The notes under the pieces: model-generated
What the model saw: the letters and a program-made list of their open reading frames with translations, nothing else
Databases searched by the model: none
What the model was told of the DNA's origin: nothing
Source of the DNA: a virus
Lineage: Duplodnaviria; Heunggongvirae; Uroviricota; Caudoviricetes
Length of the DNA: 64,000 nt
IMG/VR virus record: IMGVR_UViG_3300020158_000005
Span: 1 to 64,000 of that record
Direction: 5' to 3' (one strand)
Position numbers and translations under genes: made by a program
Shown here: positions 25,734 through 59,413 of the stretch, piece by piece
Layout: each line of letters starts with the position of its first letter
Numbering within the stretch: position 1 is the first letter of the stretch

Positions 25734-25735
25734 TT

Positions 25736-32558: not shown

Positions 32559-32560
32559 AT

Positions 32561-38873: not shown

Positions 38874-39302
38874 ATGATAAATAAAATGTTAAAATTAGCA
38901 GGCGTAAAAGATGAGAAGAGCTTTTACAAGAAGTACCCTTCAGAGGAAGCTTTTATGCAACAACATGGTGAAGCCTTTAATAAACTTGTTAATGGTGGAA
39001 GTTTGAAAAAACAAGCTGAACAATCTGGTCTTATAATGGATTATGGAGCTAATGGCATTCATATTAATCCTGCTAACAAAGGTAAGTTTACAGCTACTAA
39101 AAAAGCTACAGGTAAGTCTACTGAAGAACTTACTCACAGTAAAAATCCAGTTACTAGAAAGAGAGCTATCTTTGCACAAAACGCTTCTCACTTTAAACAC
39201 GAAAATGGAGGTAACTTAAAATATATAGAAGGTATGGAATATGACTTACCAATAGAAGAAATTAAAAAATTAGAAAAAATAGGTTATAAATTAGAATACT
39301 AA
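38874..39302 (+). CDS. hypothetical protein
   Basis: 142-aa ORF. Confidence 0.45.
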   Translation: MINKMLKLAGVKDEKSFYKKYPSEEAFMQQHGEAFNKLVNGGSLKKQAEQSGLIMDYGANGIHINPANKGKFTATKKATGKSTEELTHSKNPVTRKRAIFAQNASHFKHENGGNLKYIEGMEYDLPIEEIKKLEKIGYKLEY

Positions 39303-42800: not shown

Positions 42801-43416
42801 CTTAGAGCAATCTTATCAAGGAGAAGTGGATTTAAACCCTATTGTAGCTAACACTAGAGCAATGCAACAAAGCTTAGGTGGAAACGCTGCTGAAGCTGCT
42901 ACAGCAACAGCATTAGCCAACCAACAAATCTATCAAGCTCAGAGTCAAGGATTTGCAGCTAACCAAGATAGAACAGCAGGTGTGTTTGCTAGAAATAGAC
43001 AAGCTATGAATGAGTATGGAAGAACTGCAGCTAGTGTAGCTCAAACACAAGCTGACAGACAAGCTCAAATGGAAGCTAATACAAGAGCTATGACTAGAGA
43101 TGCTTTAGGACAATTCGGAGAAATAGACCTACAAAATAAGAGAGATTGGAACAACTTTAACGTACAAAAACAAATGTTCCCTACTTATGGAGTAGACCCT
43201 AATTATCAACTTAAAGTAGAAAACCCTTATAATTTTAATATTCCTGAAGGTTATTCTTCAGATGGTAGAGGTGGATGGGTAGATAAACATGGTAATAAAG
43301 TAACATTAAAAGAAACTAAAGATGCTATGGGAAGACCTGTTAAATCAGAAAAAACAACAAAAGTAGGTAAATATGGAATATCTATTAACAGAGAGTTTAA
43401 GTCCTATAAACCTTAA
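39832..43416 (+). CDS. virion protein with a lytic transglycosylase (SLT-like) motif; cargo or peptidoglycan-hydrolase candidate
   Basis: 1194 aa; GVDPYNALAMAYQESRFGN (SLT E-S motif); repeated (M/Y)ADGGDI motifs; Gly-rich. Confidence 0.6.
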   Translation: MKVKIIKGPKQNAKKWHHALNGASVIDPNEPFDPTKPIDLSKLPNISAKEDVVPELNFSPAQYLTDAKVAQQSIGNTNFQPTGNIMGDNQSLPTTKMIKQPKQKKNFDLGKTVAGGLLAIDMMMPSEQIKMNYPSPANAPYYNPYPSGTGSSALMEDGGQISPEKAKQILHDGTIRGKRITNKQRKYFGAMSNMADGGDIAGDPTKPKPLSREVVDSSIAARREAGLPLKGFMLTANEKGEPTWITKEDYEKAHQPVLKSAETPSTPTTEAPSKKLRFIDTRDIQDATGLPVKKGGKPVEVEEDYIRNIVKKAKKAGVDPYNALAMAYQESRFGNSEGGRENPFHISREYDDDYSKLEKKHGGDEVAMFMDMLKSRTDYAAKKLHKKGDAELLQSYNGYGKLTPNSEDKSDYYYGINVREHPIDMAKNPIYGKTVVDIRDNIIKKNPDLVNIINEPIPQSAGLGSPLITTPPPPTDDKLALGGGLPGANGMFYQRGGGDWQPKSMRMGGHFTTAYADGGDIGKKPRYAAIQVGDPSAMQATYTVDLNSGTKVKRGDGKGTTTLYNSVDANGNRQMLSEEQVAPYLNSKNNYGITNYNTKGKPAGTDSLYLAPGASPSSIHMFEQGGSVYEQGGELQLYSPDSQAAHLSPSIVKFQGKEHGESNAIGSEGIPLQYGGNPVEVENDETGYSTEDGGFTVLGKMKNPLSGRMFKNDGKVLAAKEAKASKQLVRGTNLMDSADTQNPFELLKFNSGKAKTIGAKAKAEQVNQEKETLAALQQHMLDFAEQNNLDPNAMSKGKIKTAKFGIRMPIAENGITTPRHGQRDVDPSGNTFVYDGNAKKWLDDATFMKNNKKFGKGYGTMSDEDLVKGLKKIGPAKMPYFKAPGENYDLSAPAGYEDKPFTDRGADIEGIENTPIFSPTGGMNQYAEATTGSKNDESKGVTFKNLPTIAPQKNDLMFKGADWKNYIKPAYVLATNKKQPIRMAPLPTPALEQSYQGEVDLNPIVANTRAMQQSLGGNAAEAATATALANQQIYQAQSQGFAANQDRTAGVFARNRQAMNEYGRTAASVAQTQADRQAQMEANTRAMTRDALGQFGEIDLQNKRDWNNFNVQKQMFPTYGVDPNYQLKVENPYNFNIPEGYSSDGRGGWVDKHGNKVTLKETKDAMGRPVKSEKTTKVGKYGISINREFKSYKP

Positions 43417-43487
43417 TTTTTAAAATTAAACTACCTCCCCATTTATTTGGTAGTTCTAATTAAACACATTAATTTTACAAATCTATT

Positions 43488-46202
43488 ATGGCGAGTTATT
43501 TAGAAAATCCTAATGTACAATACAACGCACCAGTACAGACTGCACCATTGCAGTCTTTGGTGGATGTAGGCATGCGTAAGCAAGCTTTATACAATGAAGG
43601 AGTACAACGAATTCAAAGTCAAATTGACGAGACATCAGCTTTGCCAGTAAGTAGAGATGTAGACGTACAATATCTTAACACCTCTTTAGCAAATCTTGGT
43701 ACAGAGCTTAAAAAGCTTAATACAGCAGACTTTTCTCAAATGCAAGTTACTAATTCTGTAGCTGGTATGACCTCTAAAATAGCTAAAGATAAGAATATCC
43801 AAGCGGCTGTTTATTCCACTTTGCATGACCAAAAGAATCAAGCTGATATGGAAGAAGATAGGAAAAAAGGTACACTTACTCCAGATAACGAATTCCATTA
43901 TCAAAAACAAAAACAAGAATACTTAAATTCTACAGATTTAGGTAGACAATTTAATGGTAAATATGTACCAAATTTTGATATTTTTAAATTTGCAAAAGAA
44001 ACTTTTGATGCTGTAAAACCTGATGGTTACACAATAGAACAAATTTATGCTACTAATGCAGATGGTAGCATACAGGTGGATAAAAATAAAAATCCTATTT
44101 ACTCCCCTCTAATGGTTACAATGACTAAAGAGGGTAGATTTCCTGCAAAAGTAAAAGAAACATTAGCACAAATATTCTCTGACCCAAGAGTAAGTCAACA
44201 ACTTAACATTACAGGTCAATATAATTATAGAAATTATGATGGAGAGTCTTTAGTTAAGTTAGTTGAAAAAAGAAAAAATGAGTCTTTAGCTGCAGTGAAG
44301 GAGAAAATGGCTGAATTAAATCTTCAAAAAAATGCAGGTAAAGATGTTTCAAAAGAAATAGAAACCTTACAAGGTGTATTAAATAATAAATCTACTTACT
44401 ACGACCAATATAAAGAAATAGCTACTACTAACCCAGATAGTATTAGAGGGGCTCTTTATACTGATGATGTTAATGATAGATATACTACTATGTTTGGTCA
44501 AATGAAAGAAGAGCATAAAACAGTAGAGAATCCAGGATGGAATCAAAACTTTAAAATGCTAAAAGAAAAGAATGACCAAGCTAATAATGATAGAAATTAT
44601 CTATTAGCAAAACAAAAAGCAGATAGTGAAGAAAAATGGAGAATGTTGGATTACCAACAAAAAGAAAGACTAGCAATACTTAAGAAAAAAGGAAATGGTC
44701 TTTTAGATGATACTAAAGCTGAAAAAGATGATATTCCAGGGACTTATAACCCTCAATCACAAGTAGAGGATTTAGTAACTACTGCTGTTGATAGCTTTGC
44801 TACTACAGCAGATGAATTTATATATAACACTTCATTTGCTAATTTACCTTCTAATAAAGCTACTTTTGATAGATTAATGGCTAAAAATCCTGGAGATAAA
44901 GCTTTTGTTATTAAAACAATGTTAGATGGTACAGCTAAGGCTAATGGAGAAGACCCTATATCTTTTAGAGCTAGATGGGCAGATAAATCTGCTACTGAAT
45001 ATAATCTAAATTCTTCTACAGCTACTCCTCAAATGAAAAATGCTTACGTAGAAACTATGGAAGCTAAAAGGCAAATGGAAGAAATAACTACAATGCAAAG
45101 CGTAGCTAAGAAAACCGTAGAAGCTAAATTAGAAGAAAAATATGGTAAAAACTCAATAATAAATAGTATAACTCCAATAAAAGGTATAGTTAATGGTAAA
45201 GAGTTAAATCTTACTAAACAAGATATATATGACTTAGCTATAGTTACAAAAGGACTGGGTGGTGGAATTGGTAATGAAGATTTAAAAAAAGCATCTAATT
45301 TAGCTTTAAATAGATTAACAGCTAGAGGTAGAGATAAGGAAACTGTGAATCAATTAGTAACAGAGTTAACAAATGGGGCTAATAGGTCATTTACACAAGA
45401 TAGTTGGCAATATTCATTTGGTGAAGGATTTAAACCTACTAAAATAGATTTATCTAGCATTGCAAGCGTAGCTAGTAAAATAGATAGTGAACAATTTAAA
45501 ACTGAATCAGACGAAGAAAACAAAATATACTCTAAGATATTCCATCTTCAACCTAATTTGAAAATGAATATTATGCCAGTAAAAGCTGAAGAAGCTGCTG
45601 CTCAAAAAGAGAATATAAAAAGACTTGCTACTACATACGATGATAATAATAATAACTTATCCTCTGATTTTAAAACATTCTTTAAAGAGATGGATAGTAA
45701 GGGTGCTATATTTGAAGCCCATGTTATCCCTTCCTCAAAAGGTGGAGCTCCTATGGTAAGTATAAGTGTTGGTGGTTCAAAAATATCACATGGTAATATG
45801 ATAATTACAGAAGATGAAGCTGCTAATATAGGTGTAGATGTAAATAAATTATACGAACCTAAACAAATAACAAGTTTAAAGAATATAATTTCTAGTAGAA
45901 ATGGTTGGTCTTCTCAAGAGGACCCTTCTAAAAAAAGTACTTATACATCTGGTCATGCAACATTTGATTCCCATTTAGGAGATTTTCCTAGTTTAGCAAA
46001 TAGTAAATATAATGTAAAAGTAAATTATATACAATCTTCCAATGGTATGTATTTTCCTTGGGCATATATTACAGATGGTAAGAGAACAGTTTTACAGCAA
46101 TTAGAGGGTAATGAAAATTTACAAGTATCTCTTGAGACTCTTAAACAAATAATGACTCCTGGTATGGCTGAACTAGCTCTATCACAAAATTCTAACAAAT
46201 AA
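43488..46202 (+). CDS. large virion/cargo protein (hypothetical)
   Basis: 904 aa, coiled-coil-rich; stop overlaps the start of the giant gene. Confidence 0.55.
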   Translation: MASYLENPNVQYNAPVQTAPLQSLVDVGMRKQALYNEGVQRIQSQIDETSALPVSRDVDVQYLNTSLANLGTELKKLNTADFSQMQVTNSVAGMTSKIAKDKNIQAAVYSTLHDQKNQADMEEDRKKGTLTPDNEFHYQKQKQEYLNSTDLGRQFNGKYVPNFDIFKFAKETFDAVKPDGYTIEQIYATNADGSIQVDKNKNPIYSPLMVTMTKEGRFPAKVKETLAQIFSDPRVSQQLNITGQYNYRNYDGESLVKLVEKRKNESLAAVKEKMAELNLQKNAGKDVSKEIETLQGVLNNKSTYYDQYKEIATTNPDSIRGALYTDDVNDRYTTMFGQMKEEHKTVENPGWNQNFKMLKEKNDQANNDRNYLLAKQKADSEEKWRMLDYQQKERLAILKKKGNGLLDDTKAEKDDIPGTYNPQSQVEDLVTTAVDSFATTADEFIYNTSFANLPSNKATFDRLMAKNPGDKAFVIKTMLDGTAKANGEDPISFRARWADKSATEYNLNSSTATPQMKNAYVETMEAKRQMEEITTMQSVAKKTVEAKLEEKYGKNSIINSITPIKGIVNGKELNLTKQDIYDLAIVTKGLGGGIGNEDLKKASNLALNRLTARGRDKETVNQLVTELTNGANRSFTQDSWQYSFGEGFKPTKIDLSSIASVASKIDSEQFKTESDEENKIYSKIFHLQPNLKMNIMPVKAEEAAAQKENIKRLATTYDDNNNNLSSDFKTFFKEMDSKGAIFEAHVIPSSKGGAPMVSISVGGSKISHGNMIITEDEAANIGVDVNKLYEPKQITSLKNIISSRNGWSSQEDPSKKSTYTSGHATFDSHLGDFPSLANSKYNVKVNYIQSSNGMYFPWAYITDGKRTVLQQLEGNENLQVSLETLKQIMTPGMAELALSQNSNK

Positions 46203-49200
46203 TGCCTGAAAAAGAAACATTAGTTAATATTCCTGGAGTTGGTCCTTTTATGCCTAGAACTCCATTTGTTCAAAGTCCTCTTGATGATGTTATTCCTGGT
46301 GGTAAAGCAACAGTGTCATTAAATGATGTTTTTGCTAATGCAATGAATCAAACTAAGGCATCAGGTGCTGAATCTATTACACCTAATAGATTTTATCAAG
46401 GTAATCAACTTAATACAAGTAGACCTGACACAGATTGGATGGAAGGAGCTGCACAACAGCAGTCTTCTGCAGATAAAATAGCAAATGGTGTTTTAAAAAT
46501 GGTAGGTACAGCAGGTACAACTTTTGTATCTGGTACTGTAGGTTTAATTCATGGTATTGGAGCTGCTTTAGTAGACCAACGTTTTTCTTCTCTATATGAT
46601 AATGGTACAACAAGATTAATGCAAAAGGCTTCCAATGCAATGGAAGATGCTGCACCTAACTTATATACACATGCAGAACAAGATGCTGCATGGTACTCCC
46701 CTAAAAATTTATTTACTGCAAACTTTCTTGGTGACAAGTTATTGAAAAACATGGGTTTTTCTCTTGGTGCTATGGGTGCAGGTATGGCTTGGAGTAGTGT
46801 ATTACAATCTATAGGTGTTGTAAATAAACTTATACAAGCAGGAAAAGGTATGGAAGCTATTACAGCTACAGAAGAAGCTATGAGTAGTGTTCCTAAATTA
46901 CAAAAATATAATGCTTTCTCTAATAAATTAGCTGAGTTAGCTGATACTTATTTAAAACCAATAGGAGCTTCAGCAGCTAAGAATGCCGATAGAATACTCA
47001 CATCTGCAATGGGTACATTTAGTGAAGCTGGAATGGAAGGTATGCAGAGTATGAATAAATTCAGAAATGATGCTATTCAAGATTATAGAAATAAATATGG
47101 AGTAGACCCAACAGGTAGTGATTTAGAAGATATTAATAATTATGCTTATAAAATAGGTAATTATACCTTTGGTATGAACACCTTATTATTAACAGGAACT
47201 AACTATATACAACTTCCAAAAATGTTAGGAAGTAGTAGAAAGATAGATAAGGCATTAATTAATGATGTAGAAAAAGATGCCGCAACTGGTGTATGGAAAC
47301 AAGCTATACCTAAAACTGCTTTTGGTAGATTTGCTAGTAAAGCTTATAATGTAGCTGGTTTAGTATTTGCTCCTGCAGAAGCTTTTGAAGAAGGTATGCA
47401 AAATGCTATACAAACAGGTACACAAGATTATTTTAATCAAGCTTATAAGAACCATGATAAGGCTAGAAACATTCTAGAAAACACTTATGGTGCAATGAAA
47501 GGTGTGTTTGGTACAGGTATTGAGCAAACTCTTAATAGTAAAGATGGTTTAGAATCTATTCTTATAGGTGGTTTATCAGGAGGCTTACAACAAGCTGGTA
47601 TTATAGGTTCATACAGAAATGAAAAAGGTCAAACAAGAGTAGGATTTTTTAAATCTGGCGAAATAGGAGAAAGAGGTGTATTTGGGACAGGAGGAGAAAG
47701 AGCAGAAAATACTACTGCTGCTTTAGCCAGATTAAATAAAATGACTGCACAGGATGCTTTAAAATCTGCAGTAAAATACATGGCTATTGGAATAGGTAGC
47801 CAAGAAAAAAGACAACAAGCTATACAAAATAATGATGTCCTTTCTGAAAAGGATTATGAGCATGACTATGCTCTTTCCTATGTAATGCCAAGAGTATTAT
47901 ATGGTAAGGAAGATTCTATACATACAGAATTAGATGGATATAAAGCACAAGCAGCAACTACTGTTGGTTTTCAAGAATTACAAAATGCTGGTATAGCACA
48001 TCCAGAAGAAACAAACATTCAATTTATCCAAAGAATTGATTCTTTAAAACAACTTACTAAGGATATTACAGATATTCATGAAAAGGTATCTGATAGATAT
48101 AGTGACTATAGAGATAAAGAGGGTAATAAATTATTCGAGGAGCCTGCTATTGAAAAAATGGTATATGCAGCAGCTAAAATTAAAAACTATGAAGAGAGAT
48201 ATAATAATCTCCTACCTAAGTTAGGTGGAGTTAATACTTATGAGGCACTTACTGATATTATAGATAAAGGTGTTCCTAATAAAGAAGCAACTAAACAAGC
48301 TTTAGAAGATATTGAAAATTTAAAAGTAAACGGATTCCCTGCTACAGAAGAAAAGAAAAATGAGGTAAAATCTGATTTTGAAGATTTAGTAGAATTAGCT
48401 CTTCGTAGAAAACATTTTGTAGATGAGTATAATAGTATTAAAAACACCCCTGAAAAATGGAATGATAAACATACAATTAAAACTCCTCCTTCTGCAGGTG
48501 TATTAAAAAAGGAAGATGTAGTAAAAATCACTACAAAAGATGGGGAAGAAGAATTAAAAACAAATACAAATTATATAGCAGGAGCTAAGGAAATTAAAAC
48601 TATGGAAGGTGTAACAATTCCTGGTTTTATGAGTTTTAGATTATTAGGAGAAGATAAAGACGGTAATATTCAGATATTAATGCCAGATGGTAAAAAACAC
48701 ACTATCTCTAAGGCAGCTTTTGCTGAATATAAATTAGGAGAAACAAATAAATTAAGTCCTAATGCTAGAGTATATATTGCTAATGCTGATAAGAAATTTC
48801 ATTACCAGTTAAAAGGTGGTAAATCAATAGAAGGCAGAATTGAATTTAATAAAAAAACAGGGGAATTAGAATTTCATTCTTTAGAAACAAAAAAGGATGG
48901 TACACCAAAGAATATTATTAAAATTACAAGAGACCAATTAGTAGCTAAAGAAGGATATTCTAAAGCACAAATATATTCAGATGAGAAATTCACTCCTGAA
49001 ACAGAAGCTCTGTTACAAGAAAAACAAACAGAAGAAGAAAAGAAAATAGCTGATAATTTAGCTGCTAAAATAGAAGAAAGAAGAAGAATCATTAAAGAAG
49101 TAGCAGATGAAACTAAAGAATCTCTAGATAGAATTCAAGAAAAGATTCTTTCTAAAAAAGAAGAATTAGCTAAGATAAATGAAGAAATAAAGGAATTAGC

Positions 49201-52200: not shown

Positions 52201-55200
52201 TCTTTCTTTTGCTAAGAAAGGTATTATGGATGTGGATTATGTATCTACGGATAAGTTTGGTACATTTGAAACAAGAGAAAAGATTAATGCTGTAGAGGAA
52301 AAAGACATGATTGAGCACATGACTTCTCAAGCTTTCCAATATTTATTTGGAGAGAATAAAAGTTTGTTCAATAGTCAGAAAATCAAGAGAGAAGAGTTCT
52401 ATGATAATATTTATAAATATGTATTAGGAACCTTAATCTCTTCTCCTTATAAAAAGATTACAGAGTTACATAATAATGGTAAACTTACTGATAGTCAATT
52501 TGAGTATGAAACAGCTAAGTTAGATAGACTGTATGAGAAAATTAGTACAAACTGGATAGAAATAGAAGCTAGACATGAAATGTACATGAAAACATTCTCA
52601 TTAGAGTTTGATGAAAATGATGAGATAGTTAATACAGATGAGAATAAAACTGGTAGAGAAACTGGTCAAAATGCTATGCATGTAGACCATATTAGAAAAT
52701 CTAATCATGCTATTAAATTATTATTTGCATCTTTATACGAAGTAACTGCTACATCTCCTAAATATGATGAAGCTTTAGCTACAGTACAACCTGCTAGTTC
52801 TTCTATAGGTGGAGATATTTTATTGTCCTTTGGAAAGAGCTTTGTTCAAACATTGAATGCACTATCCAATAGTGCTAAGTTTGAGGATATGATAAAGAAC
52901 CTAGTGAGTTTAGCTAGGAATAACACCAACTATGTAAATTTATTCCAAAGAATAGGTGGAAGTAGAGTGTCAGGTAAAATACAATGGGATAAGTTAGATG
53001 TGCATGATTTAAGATTGTTAATGGCTTTCTTCAAATCATTCTCTAAACAACAACCAGAAGTTATTAACCACTACATTGGAGAAGATGGAAGCGGATATAT
53101 AGGAAGCGGTAATATAGCAAACGCTACAGAACAGCTTGCAGAGAGATATGAGCAAAATCTTATTAAAGCAGTGAAAAAATCTTCTTTATTCAACTTCTTT
53201 GATAAAAAAGGGTATGCTGTTAATAAAACTGCTCTTAAGCAATGGAACATTGAAAAAGAAGAAAACAAACTTAGATTCTTAAAAGAACTTGGATTAGAAA
53301 TAGAGTTTAATAAGCTTAGTAAGGAAGATAAAGCTATTGTAAGTAATGCCGTAAAAGGTATTTATACAGCTCTTACAAAATCTAATTTAGTAGTAGCTAT
53401 TAATGGTAAAACCTTTGATTTAGAAGGTAGACTAAATGAAATAGCTGCCACTCAAGCTAGATTTAATAGTGAGGGTAGTGATAGTGTATTCTTTAATATT
53501 AATGGAGAATTACAACAAACTTTCGTAGATAAAAACTATGCTTCTAAATTTGCAGAGGTATTAAATAGTTTAAAAAATAGAGACGAGTTACAAAATACTA
53601 ACTTCTCCTATTTAATGGATTATGAAAAAGGTGGGGATGTATTCAGTAGAAATTCTATTGTTATTAATAGAATGTATAATACAAGAGGTGAGAGAGTAGG
53701 TAAAGTGAGAGTGGGTTATGTTAATGGTACAGTGAATAATGATAATGGTAAACGTACCACAACAGATAGACTTACAAAAGGTAGTAGGTTATTACAACAA
53801 ATTAATCTACAATTAAATGGTTGGTATTATACATTATTACCTGCAGATAGTAGTACAGAATGGATGATGTATTTAGGTAAATTAGTTTCTCTGGCAGATA
53901 CTCGTAGTACTTCTGGTGCTGTAGTGCATGATATTTTTAGAGGATATTTACAAGATGAAATAGATTTAGCTAAAGAGAATAGAAAAACAGCTTTAGCTGT
54001 AGCCCCAAGAGCAAACGAATTACGTTTCTTTAAAGCTATTCTTGGAGAAGAAATGTCTAAAAAAGCTGTAGAAGCTGAAGGTGATTTTTATGCAGATAAT
54101 AAAGAAGCTATTGATAAAAAAGTAGATGCCTTCATAGAATCTGTTTCTAAGAACATGCAAGAAGAGCTGTTGAAATATGGAATGATTACTCTTAATACAA
54201 AAGGTACTTTTGATTTCCAATCTTTAGATACAAGTAAATTAGACAATTTCAATAAGAATGGATTTAAGCAAGATGGTTTTGATGCCCTTACGAAATTCTT
54301 AGCTACTAACTATGTTATAGCTAATACAGAAATGTTTAAAACTGTATTTGGAGACCCTTATGAATATAAAGACCCTGTTAAGAGGTTTAAATCTTTCATG
54401 TCCCCTGCAGAAACTACTGTATCAACTAGCCCAGAAATAAACAATCTGCTTAATCAGAAATATAATGTAGGGTTAAAACCTACAGATATTGGCTACAGAA
54501 CCTTTACAGAGAGAGTAAAAACAATAGCATTTAGTGATGTGGAAGTATCCACACCATTATATGAAGATGGATTTGTAGAACCAGATGCTCAAGGTTTAAT
54601 TACAGATGAGGCTAATAGAGAGTTTAGATTAAAATCTAGCTTATGGGAAGATAGTGACGAGTCACAATATCAATATGATAAAGCTTGGGAAAGAAACCAA
54701 AAAGCTGGTAAAAACGAGAAATTTAAAGAGTCTACAGAAAAATATGTTTATACAGACGAAAAATTAGAAAAGAAAGATGAGGAAATCCTTAAGAAAGGTA
54801 ACCCATCTGTCACTACTTCTAATTACATCCTTAAACCTATTGTGAGGGGTAATAAATATGCTAGTAATATTAACTCAGTAATGATTGATAAGTTTTCTCT
54901 AGCACCTATTTCTTATAGGTCTTTAATGGAATTTGCTCCTTCATCTAACATGCTTAAGCTGTATGATAAGATGAAAAAAGAGGGTATTGATTATGCAGTA
55001 TTTGAATCAGGACGTAAGGTAGGTAATGAAGGAAATAATAATCCTTATAAAATAGATGACAAAGGAAATGTTACATTAAATGATGCTAAATTCCATAGTG
55101 TTGTAGATGTACCTTTTGAGAATTTCTCTATTCAAGTACAAACTGTACCACACGAAGAAAACTCACAACCTATTGGTACTCAGCTTACTAAACTTGCCAC

Positions 55201-58200
55201 TTTAAATTTAATGCAAGTTGGTGTTCCTATTGATTTTAAAGGTACACAAGAAGAATGGGGTAAATTAGATAAGAAAGGAAGATTAAAAGCTTCTAAGTTA
55301 TATGAAGAAATAAAACACAACCAGGATTTATTAGAATCTCTAATGAAGCATGGATATAACGTTTTATTAAGAAAATTTGGCATTACTGATAATGGTAAGA
55401 ATTTCTCTAGGGAACAAGTAGCTGAGGTGTTGAGAAGTGAGTTATTCAAAAGAGATGTTAATGATAATATCATTAAAAGCTTAGATTACTTTGCTAAAGG
55501 AGAGATTGCTTTAGAAAGCACTCCTATTTATCAACAATTGAAGAATGCGTTATATTCTATAGTAGATAAAAACATTGCTTCTCAGAAAGTAAATGGTGGT
55601 CCTAAAGTACAAATGGCTTCTACATTCTTTGAGCAAAATAGAATTGTTAAGAAAACAATAAAAGGAAAACCTGTCTACAGTAGTACAGATTTAAAATTCT
55701 ATGAAGATGCTCCAGGAAAGAGATACATGGAAGTATATATTTCTTCTTCTTACATTAGACAACAATTTGGAGAAAATCATCCTGTACAGAAAATGACAGA
55801 TGAGGAATTATTTGAAAAACTCTCTTCTGAAGAATTAGGTGGTATTGGTTTCCGTATTCCTACACAGAATACAAACTCTTCTGATGTATTTATTATTAAA
55901 AAATTCTTACCTAGAGAAATGGGAGACACTGTAGTGGTTCCTTCTGAACTAGTTAAGAAAGTAGGTAGTGACTTTGACATTGATAAATTGAATACATATT
56001 TAAAGAATGTGTATTATGACGGAAAGAATTTCAAAGCTATTCCTTTCTTAGGTATGAATAAGGAAGATTATGCTGATTTTGCTAAAGAAAACTATGATAG
56101 AAAAGACGACAAAGATGCTGAGAAATTAGAGAGTGATTTAGATATGGTGTATAAAAAGGCTTTACAGAACGAATATTTCCGTTCTTTAGAAAGACTTTTG
56201 TCTAATGAATTAAACTTCAAAAACCTTACTACTCCTAATGATGCCTCTGAATTAAAGAAAATAGCTGATGATATTGTTAAATTAAGAGGTTTAGAAACAG
56301 AGAATAGTGATATTGTAAATATGCTTAACCCTATTTACATGAATAGTGTAAGACATGACTTCGTTATAGGTAAATATGCAGTGGGTATTGCAGCTATGAA
56401 CCAAACAAACCAAGCTCAAAATCAACGTTCTCTCACATATTTAGACTTAGATAAAATATCTACTATCCCAGAAGATATGTCTGATTTTTTAGGTGACGGT
56501 AAAATACTACTAGACCATAACACTAGAGAAGTAGAAGTAGGGGGAGTGAAAAAAATGGTTACATCTCTTTCTGAAATATATGATAAGGCAGGAAATGTTA
56601 TATCTAACTGGTTATCAATGTATGTGGATGGATATGTGGACGTAGCTAAAGGTGCTTGGATTATTAACTTAGGTGCTACACCTAACGTTGCTGCTACATT
56701 TATGTTCTTACATAAAATAGGGGTTAAACCTAAAACAGTAGCTTATTTCATGAACCAACCTATCATTGCAGACTATTTAGCTACATTAGATAAAGCTGGT
56801 TATTCCTGGTTATTTATACAAGATTTCGTTGATAATTTAGTAGAGGGTAAATATGCTTCAAATACTAAAGCTCCTGCTACTATAGATGAAAGTAAATTGA
56901 GAGATACTATAGGTAAGAAAGAATTAACAGATAGTGAAAAAGCAGAACAACAATTAATTCTTAATGAATTCTTGAAGTATGCTAAGATGGCTCAACATTT
57001 ATTTCATGTTACACAAGGAAGTAACTATGATACTTATTCTTTTAATGACCCTTATTTGTTATTTAAAAAAGAAGCACAGTTAAATAAAGCTAGAAATACT
57101 ATTATTTATTCTGTAGATAACATATTGAATGATAGTTTTGTAGGGGAAGTTAAGAATAAAATGGAACAAGCTAGAAATAGTGTTGGTGTATTATTTGCTA
57201 CAGAAAGCAATAAAATAAGAAATATTATTCAATCTGTTCTTTATGACTACACTGATTTAAATGACAAAGAGTTCATTAAAGTGTCTAAAAACGTAGTGCA
57301 CTCTTTTATAGATTACACTATTCAAACTGTTTCTAGATTAAATGGTAGAATAGAAGACTTAATGATAGGGGATAAAAATCTTCCTTCTAAAGTAAGAAAT
57401 CTAATAGATAGCTTACCAAAAGATGCGGAATTAAGAAGTAATCCAGTAATTAAATCTATCCTTACATTAGAAAGTCAAAGGAATGGTAAAACAAACAACC
57501 TTAAACTTACTACTAAGAATGCTGAAATCTACCAACAAAATACAATAATTAAAGCTTTCCAAGAGTTAAAAGAGAATGCTTTATTTAAAGACATTTACCC
57601 AGATTTATTAAGGGTGTCTTTATTACAAGGTATTGGTAATTCTCCTATATCATTCACACAATTCCTTCCTGTAGAAGATTTAGTAAATGCAATACAACCT
57701 ATCATAAATCAATTAGAAGTATTGCCTAATCTAGATGCATTTGCTACATTGCACATGTTTGAAAGAAACAATTGGGCTGATAGTAGTATTGTACCTTCTA
57801 TGAAACAATGGAAACGTAACGATAGGGGTGTTCTTAAAATTTATTCTAAAGTGAAGCCATTAGAAGCTATTAGAGCTAAAGGTGGTAATGTAATTGGTAT
57901 TGATAGTAAGTCTAGAATTTCACAAGGAGATATTATTGTGATTTCCCATAATAAAGAGGGGTATACACAAGACCAAATTAATGAAATGCGTAAAGTGGGT
58001 GACTACTCTTATATAAATAAAGGTTTATATCAAAAGGTATATTCTAAACCTGGACAAGAATTATTCTCTTCATATAGTTTTGAGGATAAAACTACAGGTA
58101 AAATGGTAAATGGACGTACTCTTTATTATAGACAAATAAACGCTTTAGGTGATAGCTATCGCCTACAGGAGTATTATGCTAATCCGAGGCAATCAGTGGT

Positions 58201-59413
58201 AGATAATGGATTTACTCCTATAAAAGACGAACTTTCAGATAGTATTGTTACAAGTTTAATAAATCCTTATTTATCTAAACAAAATAACGTACCTTCGCAA
58301 GGTATGAATACTAAAGCTGGGACTATATCTTTTCAAGAAGATAACACAACTGGATATAAAGAACGTACTATTAAAAATGCTTCTGCTGATGCTACTATAG
58401 CTATAGCTCATGATTTTAATAGTGCAGGAGAAAAGCTTACTAAATCTTCTGTATTAGAACAAAACAAGAAATATTTACCTGTTTCTACAGATGTATTTGC
58501 TTCAAAAAGTAGTGTTGAATTAGCAGCAGCTAAGATAGCTCAAGAGTTAAATAGACTTCCTAACAATGAGATTTCTTTAAATATTGCAGGTAATGGTATT
58601 TATACATTAAAAGAAACACTTACTCAGTCTGCTGCAGATAATTATACATTAGAACTATTACAAGAGGTTCAAAAAAGATTAGCTCCTGGAAAGAAAATAG
58701 CTTCTATTAGAACAGGTGGTCAAACAGGATTTGATGAAGCAGGTGCAAAAGCTGGATTAAAATTAGGAATTCCTACTACTATATTAGCCCCAAAAGGATG
58801 GAAATTTAGGGATATTACAGGAGCAGATATTTCTAATGAGCAGCAGTTTAAAGCTAGATTTCAAGCTAAAACTACTACTGTAACTAACACTGTAAGTACT
58901 ACAAAGATTAATATATATGCTGGTACAGGAGAAAATGCTGAATTAAGTAACTTTGCCAACAGACCATTTGATTATAATACTAAAACTTTTCCAAGAGAAA
59001 ATATTAATTTTAAATCTGTAGAACAAGCTTTTCAATTTATGAAACTAGCTTATTCTCCAAGTAGTATAAAAAATGAAAACATTGCTAATAAAATTCTTCA
59101 AACAACAAGTGGTTCAGAGTTAAGAAATTTAGGCAAATCCTTTGATTTAAAAAAAGATGGTTCTTGGGATAAAAACTCTTCAAGGATAATGAAAGAGTTA
59201 TTAAAAGCTTCTTTTGAACAAAACCCAAAAGCTCTTAGAACTTTGTTAGAAACAGGAAATGCTGAACTTACTCACACACAAGACAGAGGTAAATGGGGAA
59301 CAGAGTTTCCTAGGTTATTAATGGAAGTAAGAAACGAATTAGCAAATAACAAAACTACTAAACCAGAAGGATTACCAGGGATTAAAGATAATAACAAAAA
59401 TAACTGCGGATAA
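46202..59413 (+). CDS. giant 4403-aa multidomain virion/cargo protein: zincin HExxH, candidate RNAP beta-barrel motifs, C-terminal SLOG-like + NADAR domains
   Basis: uninterrupted 13.2-kb ORF; HEVFH at 51860-51874; GRKVGNEG at about 55009-55032; DFDID at 55970-55984; GGQTGFDEAGAKAG at about 58715-58760; NADAR-like region 58909-59345. Confidence 0.8.
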   Translation: MPEKETLVNIPGVGPFMPRTPFVQSPLDDVIPGGKATVSLNDVFANAMNQTKASGAESITPNRFYQGNQLNTSRPDTDWMEGAAQQQSSADKIANGVLKMVGTAGTTFVSGTVGLIHGIGAALVDQRFSSLYDNGTTRLMQKASNAMEDAAPNLYTHAEQDAAWYSPKNLFTANFLGDKLLKNMGFSLGAMGAGMAWSSVLQSIGVVNKLIQAGKGMEAITATEEAMSSVPKLQKYNAFSNKLAELADTYLKPIGASAAKNADRILTSAMGTFSEAGMEGMQSMNKFRNDAIQDYRNKYGVDPTGSDLEDINNYAYKIGNYTFGMNTLLLTGTNYIQLPKMLGSSRKIDKALINDVEKDAATGVWKQAIPKTAFGRFASKAYNVAGLVFAPAEAFEEGMQNAIQTGTQDYFNQAYKNHDKARNILENTYGAMKGVFGTGIEQTLNSKDGLESILIGGLSGGLQQAGIIGSYRNEKGQTRVGFFKSGEIGERGVFGTGGERAENTTAALARLNKMTAQDALKSAVKYMAIGIGSQEKRQQAIQNNDVLSEKDYEHDYALSYVMPRVLYGKEDSIHTELDGYKAQAATTVGFQELQNAGIAHPEETNIQFIQRIDSLKQLTKDITDIHEKVSDRYSDYRDKEGNKLFEEPAIEKMVYAAAKIKNYEERYNNLLPKLGGVNTYEALTDIIDKGVPNKEATKQALEDIENLKVNGFPATEEKKNEVKSDFEDLVELALRRKHFVDEYNSIKNTPEKWNDKHTIKTPPSAGVLKKEDVVKITTKDGEEELKTNTNYIAGAKEIKTMEGVTIPGFMSFRLLGEDKDGNIQILMPDGKKHTISKAAFAEYKLGETNKLSPNARVYIANADKKFHYQLKGGKSIEGRIEFNKKTGELEFHSLETKKDGTPKNIIKITRDQLVAKEGYSKAQIYSDEKFTPETEALLQEKQTEEEKKIADNLAAKIEERRRIIKEVADETKESLDRIQEKILSKKEELAKINEEIKELAKFSKKDRVGGNTIITNFNKLLSTNMKALSRLTNLKVNLEKEIEFLEGNKETIETNLSYFEDLQDNLKELPENSKEFLAEFKDQIDNLESMSLQIGSEINSINKLIKSIENTLKDLAKLLKSSFEKFNKDYPHYIKTSFDRMIGTGVSVPEFQSIKEYIADYSLIEDTKKQISVDSAMLEPLEKEVEDLYKQLGELDKEITAKTVIYNKFKAIADKYTKEQKELEALQKSEEYKQLLFKSYKDVQHGENQVSTVKEFEEPLKADNIIYASTSVPSKEEDLKPHHKRANYFGSIFSTLTNKNSIKGILITENMGPQFAAIIKLTQGDYVVKGEDDAFILNVFVAENKDGGFDYINEKGESIGAFGSEIDPNLLVFQTLTSAKSETSGGYTKGRATSTQEELDAYQEQYKQFRAKLLSDAGMEGRVQNVSPSFGHVKEIYKTDEPQPVSNIVSEEQLATEPLITISTNEDGRVENAFQSIKVPKGVPVLNTGNYITPLNNRKLIEKEKKTLLSILTSLASMSKEDLSGETAMKLFSFLRGVVYWGIPTNEAGRNSIWFANGYLHFGNNEARVPFTADGLKEYSGLVNTFLNEMYANTNNAYLKQNEPFFEIQEVDSKGVVTKEQRWNTYQEYLLSDKTPEGEKRNAEEIPLTTKIPSSTLEDGNTTRQGIYFVMESLESSYVKPEAKAPVVEATTQAPTAPAVKSPLLKQGFTSGGTSELVSFADVMADLAKRPTTPTETKPVEAAPKPAETGKDELATQKMNFQIGIINLDPSLSPSQKEAKIQEVKNKYLGEVKEAQAQGKPTGAAALIAEKFAPIDRNAQTRIVTSTSVKTEEWNKVEKWLAKNFSGVPVIRVKNMIQLANNTQAYGLFADGAIYLYENAELGTVYHEVFHGVMFHFASAEEKEALLKEFQNRKGTFTPRGKEFAVEYNKATFKQMEEALAEEFREYVLKQTSVLGKIGNFFKDLYNFIFNHAQNPSKTQELFKSINNGGFRYFVPGLESLSFAKKGIMDVDYVSTDKFGTFETREKINAVEEKDMIEHMTSQAFQYLFGENKSLFNSQKIKREEFYDNIYKYVLGTLISSPYKKITELHNNGKLTDSQFEYETAKLDRLYEKISTNWIEIEARHEMYMKTFSLEFDENDEIVNTDENKTGRETGQNAMHVDHIRKSNHAIKLLFASLYEVTATSPKYDEALATVQPASSSIGGDILLSFGKSFVQTLNALSNSAKFEDMIKNLVSLARNNTNYVNLFQRIGGSRVSGKIQWDKLDVHDLRLLMAFFKSFSKQQPEVINHYIGEDGSGYIGSGNIANATEQLAERYEQNLIKAVKKSSLFNFFDKKGYAVNKTALKQWNIEKEENKLRFLKELGLEIEFNKLSKEDKAIVSNAVKGIYTALTKSNLVVAINGKTFDLEGRLNEIAATQARFNSEGSDSVFFNINGELQQTFVDKNYASKFAEVLNSLKNRDELQNTNFSYLMDYEKGGDVFSRNSIVINRMYNTRGERVGKVRVGYVNGTVNNDNGKRTTTDRLTKGSRLLQQINLQLNGWYYTLLPADSSTEWMMYLGKLVSLADTRSTSGAVVHDIFRGYLQDEIDLAKENRKTALAVAPRANELRFFKAILGEEMSKKAVEAEGDFYADNKEAIDKKVDAFIESVSKNMQEELLKYGMITLNTKGTFDFQSLDTSKLDNFNKNGFKQDGFDALTKFLATNYVIANTEMFKTVFGDPYEYKDPVKRFKSFMSPAETTVSTSPEINNLLNQKYNVGLKPTDIGYRTFTERVKTIAFSDVEVSTPLYEDGFVEPDAQGLITDEANREFRLKSSLWEDSDESQYQYDKAWERNQKAGKNEKFKESTEKYVYTDEKLEKKDEEILKKGNPSVTTSNYILKPIVRGNKYASNINSVMIDKFSLAPISYRSLMEFAPSSNMLKLYDKMKKEGIDYAVFESGRKVGNEGNNNPYKIDDKGNVTLNDAKFHSVVDVPFENFSIQVQTVPHEENSQPIGTQLTKLATLNLMQVGVPIDFKGTQEEWGKLDKKGRLKASKLYEEIKHNQDLLESLMKHGYNVLLRKFGITDNGKNFSREQVAEVLRSELFKRDVNDNIIKSLDYFAKGEIALESTPIYQQLKNALYSIVDKNIASQKVNGGPKVQMASTFFEQNRIVKKTIKGKPVYSSTDLKFYEDAPGKRYMEVYISSSYIRQQFGENHPVQKMTDEELFEKLSSEELGGIGFRIPTQNTNSSDVFIIKKFLPREMGDTVVVPSELVKKVGSDFDIDKLNTYLKNVYYDGKNFKAIPFLGMNKEDYADFAKENYDRKDDKDAEKLESDLDMVYKKALQNEYFRSLERLLSNELNFKNLTTPNDASELKKIADDIVKLRGLETENSDIVNMLNPIYMNSVRHDFVIGKYAVGIAAMNQTNQAQNQRSLTYLDLDKISTIPEDMSDFLGDGKILLDHNTREVEVGGVKKMVTSLSEIYDKAGNVISNWLSMYVDGYVDVAKGAWIINLGATPNVAATFMFLHKIGVKPKTVAYFMNQPIIADYLATLDKAGYSWLFIQDFVDNLVEGKYASNTKAPATIDESKLRDTIGKKELTDSEKAEQQLILNEFLKYAKMAQHLFHVTQGSNYDTYSFNDPYLLFKKEAQLNKARNTIIYSVDNILNDSFVGEVKNKMEQARNSVGVLFATESNKIRNIIQSVLYDYTDLNDKEFIKVSKNVVHSFIDYTIQTVSRLNGRIEDLMIGDKNLPSKVRNLIDSLPKDAELRSNPVIKSILTLESQRNGKTNNLKLTTKNAEIYQQNTIIKAFQELKENALFKDIYPDLLRVSLLQGIGNSPISFTQFLPVEDLVNAIQPIINQLEVLPNLDAFATLHMFERNNWADSSIVPSMKQWKRNDRGVLKIYSKVKPLEAIRAKGGNVIGIDSKSRISQGDIIVISHNKEGYTQDQINEMRKVGDYSYINKGLYQKVYSKPGQELFSSYSFEDKTTGKMVNGRTLYYRQINALGDSYRLQEYYANPRQSVVDNGFTPIKDELSDSIVTSLINPYLSKQNNVPSQGMNTKAGTISFQEDNTTGYKERTIKNASADATIAIAHDFNSAGEKLTKSSVLEQNKKYLPVSTDVFASKSSVELAAAKIAQELNRLPNNEISLNIAGNGIYTLKETLTQSAADNYTLELLQEVQKRLAPGKKIASIRTGGQTGFDEAGAKAGLKLGIPTTILAPKGWKFRDITGADISNEQQFKARFQAKTTTVTNTVSTTKINIYAGTGENAELSNFANRPFDYNTKTFPRENINFKSVEQAFQFMKLAYSPSSIKNENIANKILQTTSGSELRNLGKSFDLKKDGSWDKNSSRIMKELLKASFEQNPKALRTLLETGNAELTHTQDRGKWGTEFPRLLMEVRNELANNKTTKPEGLPGIKDNNKNNCG

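Follow-up and report, generated by a model that had tools for sequence, protein, structure and literature searches.

The question raised by this locus is what kind of protein is encoded by a single open reading frame of 4403 aa, located at 46202..59413 on the + strand of the window, which is the whole stretch of 64,000 nucleotides that was analysed (positions 1 to 64,000 of IMG/VR virus record IMGVR_UViG_3300020158_000005). The analysis identifies it with high confidence as the central cargo gene in the genome of a divergent crAss-like phage. A gp47-like module (A), a virion RNA polymerase (module B), a SLOG domain and a NADAR domain are arranged collinearly in its product, which would be delivered by the route proposed below. 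The fused giant layout is known; the single Cys of the giant exposed a conserved end-to-end cysteine pattern, which may link the injected proteins.

The giant open reading frame and its gene neighbourhood

The giant ORF had an ATG start and contained no internal stops (4403 codons without a stop would be expected by chance, from the base composition, at about 2e-164), and the NCBI product for the source contig, MEI6186872.1, was the same call of 4403 aa. The single uninterrupted 13.2-kb frame reported in the initial annotation was thus borne out, and the concern about frameshifts or introns did not hold for this copy, although frame changes in this region were seen in the relatives L003 and L005. 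The genome had been described as small, which was not so, the source contig being 114.5 kb. This contig was deposited within an Alphaproteobacteria MAG, where the giant carries the name "NADAR domain-containing protein".

Upstream of the giant, the window contained TerL, portal, MCP, tail, and muzzle-like genes. The immediate neighbours were as previously described, with proteins of 1481 aa (34033-38478), 1194 aa (39832-43416), and 904 aa (43488-46202) upstream and a further frame downstream (59413..64000, + strand), which runs off the window and is 1668 aa when complete in the source contig. The latter is the next cargo protein and is referred to as module C. An HNH-endonuclease ORF of 177 aa was located between the 1481-aa and 1194-aa genes. 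A TAATG overlap was found at both ends of the giant, joining the stop of the 904-aa gene to the giant start and the giant stop to the start of module C. The 1194-aa and 904-aa proteins (39832..46202, + strand) were cargo-type proteins syntenic with the crAss001 gp45/gp46-type cargo proteins, and the 904-aa protein was homologous to an 891-aa protein of the relative L004 and an 845-aa protein of Lbo-JY46. Module C was homologous to a 1614-aa protein of L004, and its homologues carry precomputed Pfam domains (PF18760/PF18762/PF18819), GNAT, and His-phosphatase. The gene order around the giant was identical in L004, cr52_1, cr4_1, and cr118_1.

The 1481-aa protein had been suspected to be an RNA polymerase from a 2,289-position PHROG match. 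This was rejected, as the protein has no DFDxD, matches phi14:2 gp71 and a 1654-aa protein of Lbo-JY46 instead, and is Cys-rich, like the co-positioned "stabilization/muzzle" proteins of other crAss genomes.

When 24 kb were compared by megablast with 50,697 phage records, no match emerged, hence at the DNA level the phage is novel. When the whole giant was searched against the PDB with phmmer, NADAR was the sole match, and the three neighbouring giants produced no meaningful match.

Relatives and conservation of the fusion

An exhaustive search showed 663 relatives of the giant. The architecture counts rest on the 148 top cluster representatives among them, and 132 of these were 3,500-5,544 aa long with the module order unchanged. 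The closest representative, P0121, was 4,058 aa and 60% identical. Fused coding sequences were also present in RefSeq Suoliviridae, namely cr52_1 (4,464 aa), cr4_1 (4,491 aa), cr118_1 (4,946 aa), and cr130_1 (~5,801 aa). Giant fused frames are therefore usual in the clade, and the earlier view of this ORF as exceptional did not stand; Drobysheva et al. also mention a "single huge polyprotein" form. Scanning of viral contigs with the junction segment showed no relative, and a word-index search with the same segment was empty despite real homologues, probably owing to swamping by low-complexity words.

A and B were separate genes in L004, phi14:2, crAss001, and Lbo-JY46, which, with the frame changes of L003 and L005, could suggest that two or three adjacent genes were merged by an assembly or annotation error that removed a stop or shifted a frame. 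The chance of such an artefact is next to negligible, as 132 independent cluster representatives, drawn from many samples, have the same continuous architecture, curated RefSeq genomes are fused too, the NCBI gene call is identical, and the junction reads as a regular in-frame linker in which a remnant terminal Cys or start motif is absent. The A-B fusion is real and conserved, and the layout is common in the clade.

Module A and the Zincin-like region

Module A (aa 1-~2040) was similar to the cargo proteins crAss001 gp47 and phi14:2 gp67, with an HExxH (Zincin-like) motif at its end. Its body (aa 1-~1680, 46202..51241, + strand), delimited by gp47/gp67 homology, was Gly/Ala-rich in the first ~600 aa and Lys/Glu-rich in the middle. 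The Gly/Ala-rich N-terminus noted earlier was confirmed, with a G+A content of 21-23% in aa 1-600 vs 6-18% elsewhere. Against crAss001 gp47, phmmer gave E-values of 2.9e-26 (aa 90-282) and 1.2e-9 (aa 306-671), while blastp against phi14:2 gp67 gave 6e-5 and the tblastn matches were genes annotated as "putative RNA-polymerase subunit". A 2110-aa protein of L004 matched aa 11-1682 of the giant, and the homology to this separate A protein stops at 1682. The only strongly hydrophobic stretch of module A in a Kyte-Doolittle scan was GTTFVSGTVGLIHGIGAALVD (aa 105-125, 46514..46576, + strand), a candidate membrane-inserting segment.

Two Pro/Thr/Ala-rich linkers (aa 1679-1703 and 1731-1751; 51236..51454, + strand) separate the conserved A body from the Zincin-like region (aa ~1831-1991, 51692..52174, + strand), which contained HEVFH at aa 1887-1891 (nt 51860-51874). 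In the alignment, Y1886, H1887, E1888, G1915, and E1938 were invariant, and the region matched the C-terminal part of crAss001 gp47 that carries its HExxH (E=9e-6). The putative zincin residues H1887, E1888, and H1891 are present and E1938 fits the downstream third-ligand Glu, with HExxH and E1938 falling on helices 133-145 and 182-201 of the structure model. The second His of HExxH was replaced by Glu in 17 of 22 aligned sequences, and the support for a zincin fold was weak.

The gene boundary around the Zincin varied in place between phages. An A/B boundary at aa ~1950-2030, derived from L004 and L005, was revised, as the L005 "start" proved to be a frame change within the Zincin region and crAss001 gp47 includes the Zincin.

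Module B, a virion RNA polymerase

Module B (aa ~2032-4030, 52295..58291, + strand) was delimited as a two-barrel virion RNA polymerase by gp66 homology and a structure model, with the catalytic DFDID at aa 3257-3261 (nt 55970-55984, + strand). Blastp against residues 1176-1654 of phi14:2 gp66 gave E=3.5e-21 with the catalytic loop conserved, at an identity of only ~23% over 450 aa. This alignment spans the connector, the DPBB with DFDID, the bridge helix, and the trigger loop (limits according to Drobysheva et al.). The GSDFDxDK loop (G3255-K3262) was invariant in 47 divergent sequences, along with ~45 further invariant columns, and DFDxD was found in 140 of the 148 cluster representatives. 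The AF2 model of module B (pLDDT 84, pTM 0.83) demonstrated a global match to PDB 6VR4 in Foldseek, covering the barrels jointly (E=1.3e-30, prob 1.00, TM 0.68, 1,264 columns). A T7-like polymerase fold was not indicated, the Foldseek result for 9PNQ (N4 gp50 RNAP domain) being E=2.5 with prob 0.01.

Module B sits in the late/structural block beside other cargo genes, and gp66 is a DNA-dependent RNAP whose activity in the transcription of early genes has been described (Drobysheva et al.). The comparison with gp66-type and cargo proteins, suggested in the initial annotation, gave both the gp66 match and the crAss001 gp47 homology, and sequence and model together support the presence of a crAss-like two-barrel virion RNAP within the giant itself.

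The C-terminal tail

Two domains follow the polymerase. The first, a cpYpsA-type SLOG domain (aa 4042-4214, 58325..58843, + strand), scored 35.5 bits for Pfam PF12694 vs a cut-off of 26.2 when the tail was searched alone, and matched PHROG 10774 with E=3e-23 over aa 4042-4214. The second, a phage-type NADAR domain (aa 4235-4369, 58904..59308, + strand), scored 61.6 bits for Pfam PF08719 vs a cut-off of 35.1, with E=8.6e-21 for PHROG 1017 and E=2e-5 for YbiA (PDB 2B3W). In the alignment with PDB 8BAU, E4274 was placed at the equivalent of catalytic E43 and H4358 at the E125 position, the register near the D/W (aa 4361-4365) being uncertain by one residue. In NADARs, E43 is catalytic and the E125 position holds Glu/Asp, or His in phage NADARs (PMC11543638). 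The catalytic-looking motifs noted along the protein proved real; they comprise HEVFH (aa 1887), DFDID (aa 3257), and the C-terminal cpYpsA-SLOG and NADAR domains.

NADAR and SLOG domains of viruses have been called "typically standalone proteins" (PMC9503650), and their tandem is the one rare feature of the giant. Across the family, the slot after the RNAP varied and contained NADAR, cpYpsA SLOG, AlkB-type oxygenase, helicases, or DUF7831. These labels were obtained by regex and are rough; cpYpsA and DUF7831 were confirmed by Pfam, while in the same Pfam search of homologue tails DUF4326 and 2OG-Fe(II) oxygenase fell short of the threshold and no confirmation was obtained for the labels "ASCH-like" and "DprA-like". 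The tail was short (median 69 aa) in more than half of the homologues. Phage NADARs have an anti-DarT1 role (PMC11257639, PMC11543638), and the most plausible role of the tail, judging from its domains, would be the removal of ADP-ribose from DarT-type modified phage DNA and/or the destruction of NAD-derived defence signals.

The highly variable slot, the Pfam, GNAT, and His-phosphatase domains of the module C homologues, and the report of NADAR, Macro, and ART domains as virion-packaged effectors (PMC9503650) would also agree with a "polyvalent" carrier of anti-defence effectors, in which the RNAP-like part is a degenerate scaffold and a host enzyme does early transcription. This is very improbable given the invariance of GSDFDxDK and ~45 further columns, the near-universal DFDxD, and the demonstrated activity of gp66 on early genes. 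As most homologue tails are short, the conserved function is that of the RNAP, not of the effector.

Cysteine distribution

The four-gene cargo block (1194-aa protein, 904-aa protein, giant, and module C) contained 2 Cys in 8,169 residues, and the 1194-aa and 904-aa proteins had zero Cys in 2,098 residues. Cys made up 0.02% of the giant vs 0.5-4.5% of the window's non-cargo proteins (~111 Cys expected by composition). Near-total Cys avoidance is a known mark of the ejected proteins of N4-like phages, with a precedent for ejection operons (PMC11445570), and it marks the giant and its three neighbours. It also bears on whether the giant could have a purely structural role in the virion, for instance as a tail or tape-measure-like protein. 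Such a role might be suggested by its place in the structural block, the "structural protein" annotation of relatives, and the TMP-fused virion RNAP of Thermus phage P23-45. That reading is very improbable, since the adjoining muzzle and tail proteins are Cys-rich, the synteny is that of a crAss-type podovirus without a long tail, and the homologues are placed in the capsid cargo zone rather than in ordered virion structure (PMC10172136).

The sole Cys of the giant, Cys4402 (position -2, codon 59405-59407), lies in the conserved C-terminal peptide ...KPEGLPGIKDNNKNNCG (59354..59410, + strand), and module C begins MAKC, with Cys4 (codon 59422-59424) as its sole Cys. A Cys within the last 8 residues was found in 198 of 201 RNAP homologues (0.5% expected by chance). 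At the other end, 113 of 119 module C homologues had a Cys at position 3-5 (0.07% by chance), and in 104 it was the sole Cys. Unfused B proteins had Cys at both termini and unfused A proteins at the C-terminus only. In crAss001 the terminal residues are Cys2339 of gp47, Cys5 and Cys2404 of gp50, and Cys5 of gp49, and in phi14:2 they are C1797 of gp67, C3 and C2179 of gp66, and C3 of gp65. This head-to-tail rule held in 14 of 14 genomes examined, one of them a non-Crassvirales Cellulophaga phage. Because cr128_1 follows the rule though its A lies on the opposite strand, the rule is not a gene-junction artefact. A nucleotide-level cause of the paired Cys codons, such as a junction or translational-coupling motif, was rejected, as the position of the terminal Cys varies (from -1 to -9 for the C-terminal one and from 3 to 6 for the N-terminal one) and A in crAss001 and cr128_1 is not adjacent to B and is on the other strand. 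The literature searched contained no mention of the terminal-Cys rule.

The junction zone was Cys-free in 124 of 132 A-B fusions, and the sole full A-B-C fusion (5,544 aa) had zero Cys. That the junction Cys is lost in fusions suggests selection for linkage and not for separation. It is conceivable, though somewhat short of probable, that the A, B, and C cargo proteins are joined head-to-tail in the virion, the C-terminal Cys of each pairing with Cys3-6 of the next. The link would probably be an intermolecular disulfide reduced by the host cytoplasm, or possibly a shared metal, and a gene fusion such as the 4403-aa ORF is proposed to be its peptide-bond version. Such a chain would explain the recurring fusions of every degree (A-B, A-B-C).

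The giant might instead be a precursor polyprotein that is cut into A, RNAP, and effectors before or after ejection, its own Zincin-like domain being one possible protease and the Pro/Thr/Ala linkers possible sites, and the single ORF being merely a translational convenience. Drobysheva et al. regard fused forms as "likely cleaved" and the Zincin as a possible activator of the RNAP, Pro/Thr/Ala-rich linkers are available at aa 1679-1751, and the gene boundary shifts around the Zincin between phages. Cleavage is nevertheless considered unlikely, although it keeps some weight: no conserved cleavage-site motif was found, Glu usually replaces the second His of HExxH and the evidence for a zincin fold is weak, N4 vRNAP functions as a single chain of ~3,500 aa whose CTD bears an HExxH (PMC13434306), and the junction Cys is lost upon fusion, as a selection for linkage would suggest.

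Proposed mechanism and significance

The block of the giant was syntenic with the virion-protein blocks of crAss001 and phi14:2. Cargo homologues of crAss001, including gp47, were found by virion mass spectrometry and placed in the cargo zone of the capsid, where they do not form part of the ordered structure that was resolved (PMC10172136), and the phi14:2 annotation gives virion mass spectrometry support for homologues of the giant. The earlier idea of a crAss-like ejected cargo protein with a tie to RNAP was supported by the gp66 and gp47 homology, the 6VR4 match, and the Cys avoidance. By analogy with work on phi14:2, crAss001, and N4, we infer that the giant is packaged, ejected, and transcribes early genes.

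In the proposed route, the giant would be made late with the structural genes, the TAATG overlaps coupling its translation to that of its neighbours, and would be packed into the capsid cargo zone. At infection it would pass in a partly unfolded state through the tail and across the cell envelope, either before the DNA or together with it, and this threading is proposed as the reason for its avoidance of Cys. It would then refold in the cytoplasm and transcribe early genes from the DFDID active site, and the variable slot behind the RNAP would here deliver SLOG+NADAR as the DNA enters. The Cys at -2 would link the giant head-to-tail with Cys4 of module C, and the A-B fusion would be the peptide-bond equivalent of the Cys-Cys link present where A and B are separate genes.

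The module map would correct the name of the giant, now "NADAR domain-containing protein", and those of its RefSeq relatives. The C-terminus of the vRNAP may be an exchangeable site for counter-defence enzymes that are made beforehand and enter the cell with the first DNA, and thus a delivery route for anti-DarT or NAD-signal activities not described for the usually free-standing NADAR and SLOG. The terminal-Cys rule offers a testable model in which the cargo proteins are physically concatenated in gene order; if true, the Cys chain bears on the ordered threading of ~0.5-0.7 MDa of protein through a podovirus tail. A 2026 N4 study (PMC13434306) stated that the comparison of the three RNAP-associated proteins of crassviruses with the N4 NTD/core/CTD "warrants further investigation".

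Comparison with known systems

The giant shares with phi14:2 gp66 (PDB 6VR4; Drobysheva et al.) the catalytic loop (TGSDFDIDKMY vs VGSDFDIDKLN), the global fold, the position in the late/structural block, and the C-terminal Cys at -2. However, gp66 is a stand-alone protein of 2,180 aa with an N-terminal Cys3, whereas the RNAP of the giant is preceded by ~2,030 aa of gp47/gp67-like sequence, is followed by SLOG+NADAR, and has no N-terminal Cys. With crAss001 gp47 the giant shares N-terminal homology (E=2.9e-26) and the C-terminal HExxH region, which corresponds to aa 1834-1949 of the giant, and gp47 is Cys-free like module A apart from a Cys at -3. This only Cys and the terminus of gp47, ~180 aa past the HExxH, are replaced in the giant by a direct run into the RNAP.

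The Suoliviridae giants are preceded, as here, by a muzzle gene and two Cys-free proteins of ~600-900 aa and followed by an M-x-C protein of ~1,600-1,800 aa. They also have A-Zincin-RNAP fused and a C-terminal Cys, and cr130_1 has a NADAR as well. They differ in being 23-30% identical and in the use of TAG recoding by some, and their records bear the names "DNA helicase", "nuclear pore complex protein-like", or "DprA-like". The cpYpsA SLOG + NADAR tandem was absent from the sampled Suoliviridae giants (cr52_1, cr4_1, cr118_1, and cr130_1).

The N4-like (Schitoviridae) vRNAPs, gp50 and DEV gp71, are likewise ejected RNAPs of ~3,400-3,500 aa with an NTD-polymerase-CTD arrangement, an HExxH accessory domain, extreme Cys suppression, and an ejection-protein operon. 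Their T7-like single-subunit fold is, in contrast, unrelated, and terminal Cys have not been reported for them. The giant thus resembles N4 vRNAP in delivery logic and is not a member of that polymerase type; the proposed covalent Cys "daisy chain" would be the functional match of the single-chain NTD-RNAP-CTD of N4 vRNAP.

The polyvalent proteins of phages and conjugative elements (Iyer et al. 2017, PMC5512222) and the NADAR/Macro/ART effectors packaged in virions (PMC9503650) are also large multidomain proteins with counter-defence-type enzymes that act at entry. The giant would be polyvalent in this sense, having four enzymatic-type modules in one chain with predicted delivery, but it is built on a polymerase core and not on a MuF/portal-associated scaffold. 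Unlike the standalone NADAR and SLOG proteins of PMC9503650, both domains are fused in tandem to a vRNAP. Finally, T4 AdfN and the DarG1-type NADAR antitoxins have the NADAR fold of the giant's tail, and phage NADARs strip ADP-ribose from DarT1-modified DNA; those proteins are small, free, and expressed post-infection, whereas the NADAR of the giant is predicted from its sequence to be pre-made and injected within the RNAP.

Giant ORF and its gene neighbourhood

The giant ORF (window 46202..59413, + strand) ran uninterrupted for 4403 codons from its ATG start, a stop-free length with a chance probability of about 2e-164 from base composition. The same 4403-aa product was found at NCBI as MEI6186872.1, on a contig of 114,502 bp, with the title 'MAG: NADAR domain-containing protein [Alphaproteobacteria bacterium]' and locus tags WCP46_.... 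Both junctions of the giant consisted of TAATG, its ATG sharing bases with the stop codon of the 904-aa gene upstream and its own stop codon with the ATG of the next gene. The product of this next gene (the C protein) was 1668 aa on the NCBI contig, and its frame was open to the window end. The initial annotation had described an unbroken 13.2-kb ORF preceded by proteins of 1481, 1194 and 904 aa and followed by another long frame; the ORF, these neighbours and the identical NCBI product were all found, and its observation was therefore confirmed, the window copy being clean and without a frame change. Between the 1481- and 1194-aa proteins lay a 177-aa HNH/endonuclease VII-like ORF (window 39302-39835; PHROG 3322, 2.5e-22; 4.5% Cys) that looked like a homing-endonuclease insertion within the structural operon, and no gene was found at its position in the relatives examined.

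PHROG annotation showed that the window encoded terminase, portal, major head protein, tail proteins and virion structural proteins. No nucleotide-level match to the window was obtained among 50,697 phage records. By protein, the closest terminase was that of Leptolyngbya phage Lbo-JY46 (39.7% identity), followed by those of Cellulophaga phages phi17:2/phi4:1 and crAss-like phages (27-30%), and pieces of the giant matched crAss-family genes annotated as 'putative RNA-polymerase subunit', 'putative RNA polymerase' and 'structural protein'. Broadly speaking, the genome belongs to a divergent crAss-like phage. The presence of the phage contig in an Alphaproteobacteria MAG is probably mis-binning, and this placement is no reliable pointer to the phage host. 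The genes switched from the - to the + strand near 9.4-10.2 kb (window ~1-9400 and 10000-64000), where the GC skew also changed sign, presumably the border of divergent early/replication and late modules.

Domain architecture

The giant is a gp47-like cargo protein fused to a gp66-type virion RNA polymerase (RNAP) and a SLOG-NADAR effector tail. The RNAP module (B) occupied aa ~2032-4030. Within it, blastp aligned aa 3070-3522 to residues 1176-1654 of phi14:2 gp66, the virion RNAP of PDB 6VR4 (E=3.5e-21), with VGSDFDIDKLN in the catalytic loop of the giant and TGSDFDIDKMY in that of gp66; GSDFDxDK was invariant in 47 homologues. The AF2 model of aa 2701-3800 (pLDDT 84, pTM 0.83) had 6VR4 as its sole significant structural match (E=1.3e-30, probability 1.00, TM 0.68), while non-virion RNAP subunits of PhiKZ/AR9 were marginal matches and N4 gp50 scored at noise level. 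In crAss-like genome cr108_1 (15371-15662), the catalytic motif was split over two annotated CDSs (...AKAGSD / LYDIDKMY...) with a gap of ~290 nt, which fits the intron or other insertions that Yutin et al. 2021 reportedly described for the RNAP genes of crAss phages.

Module A (aa 1-~1680, or to ~2040 including the Zincin region) was homologous to crAss001 gp47 and phi14:2 gp67, both virion proteins by mass spectrometry (PMC10172136; phi14:2 annotation). In phmmer, crAss001 gp47 matched the giant at aa 90-282 (2.9e-26) and aa 306-671 (1.2e-9), and in blastp phi14:2 gp67 matched its N-terminal part at 6e-5. The Gly/Ala-rich N-terminus claimed initially was real, with a content of 21-23% across the first 600 aa, and the single strongly hydrophobic segment in this stretch was at aa 105-125. 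Linkers rich in Pro/Thr/Ala were located at aa 1679-1703 and 1731-1751. The giant had an HExxH motif at aa 1887-1891 (window 51860-51874). In A2, the alignment of 22 Zincin-like regions, 17 of the 22 had HExxE instead, and the invariant positions were H, E and a Glu located 51 residues further on. The motif is either a metal site of an unusual kind or has a function other than that of a peptidase. The A/B gene boundary varied relative to the Zincin: it followed it in crAss001 gp47, was absent in the giant, and preceded it in many metagenomic RNAPs, with the Zincin at residues ~100-350 of 2,400-2,600-aa proteins.

The C-terminal tail carried a cpYpsA SLOG domain at aa 4042-4214 (35.5 bits, cut-off 26.2; PHROG 10774, 3e-23) and a NADAR domain at aa 4235-4369 (61.6 bits, cut-off 35.1; PHROG 1017). 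Alignment to 8BAU placed E4274 as the E43-equivalent and H4358 at the E125 position, which is His in phage NADARs (Schuller et al., PMC11543638). In the 201 homologues whose RNAP C-domain was complete, the stretch following the RNAP had a median of 69 aa and reached at least 90 aa in 90. Precomputed and re-run Pfam searches found NADAR, 2OG-Fe(II)/AlkB-type oxygenase, PIF1/UvrD-type helicases, His-phosphatase, DUF7831 and cpYpsA in this slot. NADAR was found in ~23 tails of the homologue sample, and in the giant of cr130_1 too; only the window's giant in the sample had cpYpsA SLOG and NADAR together, and this tandem on an RNAP is its rare element. In viruses, NADAR and SLOG typically occur as free-standing proteins, and enzymes of this sort are often packaged in the virion and act early (Iyer et al., PMC9503650); DarT1 is neutralised by phage NADARs, which strip ADP-ribose from DNA (PMC11257639, PMC11543638). 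Judging from these domains, the C-terminus of the RNAP may be a slot through which ready-made counter-defence enzymes are delivered, with putative activity in the giant. Homologues of the C protein (P0302-P0385) also had a variable C-terminal slot, with precomputed Pfam families including PF18760, PF18762, PF18819, PF00583 (GNAT), PF00300 (His-phosphatase) and PF12705, none of which was found on the window's C protein.

Frequency of fused giants

With the RNAP half as query, a word-index search returned 214 homologues of 1,100-2,700 aa, which first suggested that the giant was an unusual fusion, and in the 113-kb metagenomic relative L004 the equivalents were separate genes (2110 aa and 2155 aa, TAATG join). 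This was rejected after 1.84 billion cluster representatives had been searched exhaustively with HMMER, the query being aa 1500-2600, which straddle the A/B junction. There were 663 relatives, and the best 148 had a median of 4,293 aa, with at least 3,500 aa in 132 and at least 4,000 aa in 109; the order N-terminal module, middle, Zincin and RNAP was complete in at least 110 of these 148. Single CDSs with the same synteny were annotated in Suoliviridae: cr52_1 (4,464 aa), cr4_1 (4,491 aa), cr118_1 (4,946 aa) and cr130_1 (~5,801 aa). The proposal that such an ORF is exceptional was thus not borne out, and the giant's kind is well populated and badly annotated. Homologues in the RefSeq/GenBank crAss genomes L007, L010, L011 and L012 were named 'DprA-like DNA recombination-mediator protein', 'DNA helicase', 'nuclear pore complex protein-like protein' and 'hypothetical protein', the whole vRNAP fusion being named after one accessory domain or a spurious match. 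L003, which at 56-59% identity was the closest relative from metagenomes, was collinear over giant aa 692-4046 with two frame changes inside conserved sequence (nt ~392-455 and 7279-7309), and L005 had one just past HExxH (nt ~1396-1408); these may be assembly errors or real/programmed events.

Cysteine avoidance and the terminal cysteine pattern

The giant had 1 Cys in 4,403 residues, with ~111 predicted from composition and 57 and 260 in its two off-frames. The 1194- and 904-aa proteins had none and the C protein 1, giving 2 Cys in 8,169 residues for four consecutive proteins (1194, 904, 4403 and 1668 aa; window 39832-64000). Other window proteins had 0.5-4.5% Cys (neighbouring structural proteins 1-3%), and the adjoining 1481-aa protein had 16 Cys, so Cys avoidance delimits a cargo block from 39832 to past 64000. 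Cargo proteins verified by mass spectrometry (crAss001 gp45-gp50, phi14:2 gp65-gp67) avoided Cys likewise. Cysteine suppression is a published hallmark of the N4-like genome-ejection operon, where it is ascribed to crossing the oxidising periplasm (PMC11445570). The match to such operons gives independent support to the initial reading of the giant as ejected cargo. The initial interpretation was essentially right, with a gp66-type RNAP and a gp47-like part found in the giant.

The remaining cargo cysteines were terminal and head-to-tail, with a C-terminal Cys in protein n and Cys3-6 in protein n+1, in 14/14 genomes (the window, L001/L002, L004, L006 and L008-L016). The sole Cys of the giant was in its last 19 residues (...KPEGLPGIKDNNKNNCG), the end being ...NNC(4402)G (codon 59405-59407), and the C protein (1,668 aa) began MAKC(4) (codon 59422-59424), with no other Cys. 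When A, B and C were encoded by separate genes, A had only a C-terminal Cys, B had Cys3-6 and a C-terminal Cys, and C had only Cys3-6. This was seen in phi14:2 (gp67 C1797, the last residue; gp66 C3 and C2179; gp65 C3), crAss001 (gp47 C2339; gp50 C5, C1334 and C2404; gp49 C5), L004, cr128_1, cr111_1 and Dulem virus 41. The B-C half of the pattern was present where an A-B fusion preceded C (cr118_1, cr52_1, cr4_1 and the window), and it was kept in cr108_1 with its RNAP split in two. In Cellulophaga phi17:2_18, which is not in Crassvirales, proteins of 1957 aa (only Cys last), 517 aa (only Cys4 and Cys516) and 1914 aa (only Cys3) followed one another. In Lbo-JY46 (19992-32898), the nearest cultured relative by terminase, a 1552-aa A-like protein was followed directly by a 2748-aa protein weakly similar to the window's C protein. 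Every gene of this block was annotated 'hypothetical protein', and a search of the block detected no RNAP with DFDxD. The only Cys of the 1552-aa protein was its last residue and that of the 2748-aa protein was Cys4.

Across homologues, 198/201 RNAPs had a Cys within the last 8 residues (chance ~0.5%). The C-protein homologues had Cys at position 3-5 in 113/119 (sole Cys in 104; C-terminal Cys in one) over a background frequency of 0.009%. All 16 unfused RNAPs with a conserved true N-terminus (MSKIKCFD, MGVCPNIK and similar) had Cys4-6, while 0/132 A-B giants had an N-terminal Cys and 124/132 were Cys-free in the junction zone. A by-product of nucleotide signals at gene junctions was ruled out because in crAss001 and cr128_1 A is encoded on one strand and B and C on the other.

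Elsewhere in the crAss001 virion, intermolecular disulfides have been documented, and no mention of cargo-protein cysteines or of the terminal pattern was found in the crAss literature searched. Quite possibly, if still somewhat short of probable, the residue placement reflects consecutive cargo proteins linked end-to-end through their terminal Cys, by disulfide or possibly metal; gene fusion would then be an alternative way to the same link. The terminal-Cys rule is the most interesting outcome, as it offers a simple, testable model of crassvirus ejection-protein organisation and bears on why the giant ORF is fused. The relation of the single-chain NTD-RNAP-CTD of the N4 vRNAP to the three crass proteins has explicitly been called open (PMC13434306). 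P0262, a full A-B-C fusion of 5,544 aa with zero Cys (C homology at 3991-5537, E=2e-145), is the crAss-lineage analogue of this layout, and the N4 single chain parallels the proposed Cys-linked crass cargo chain.
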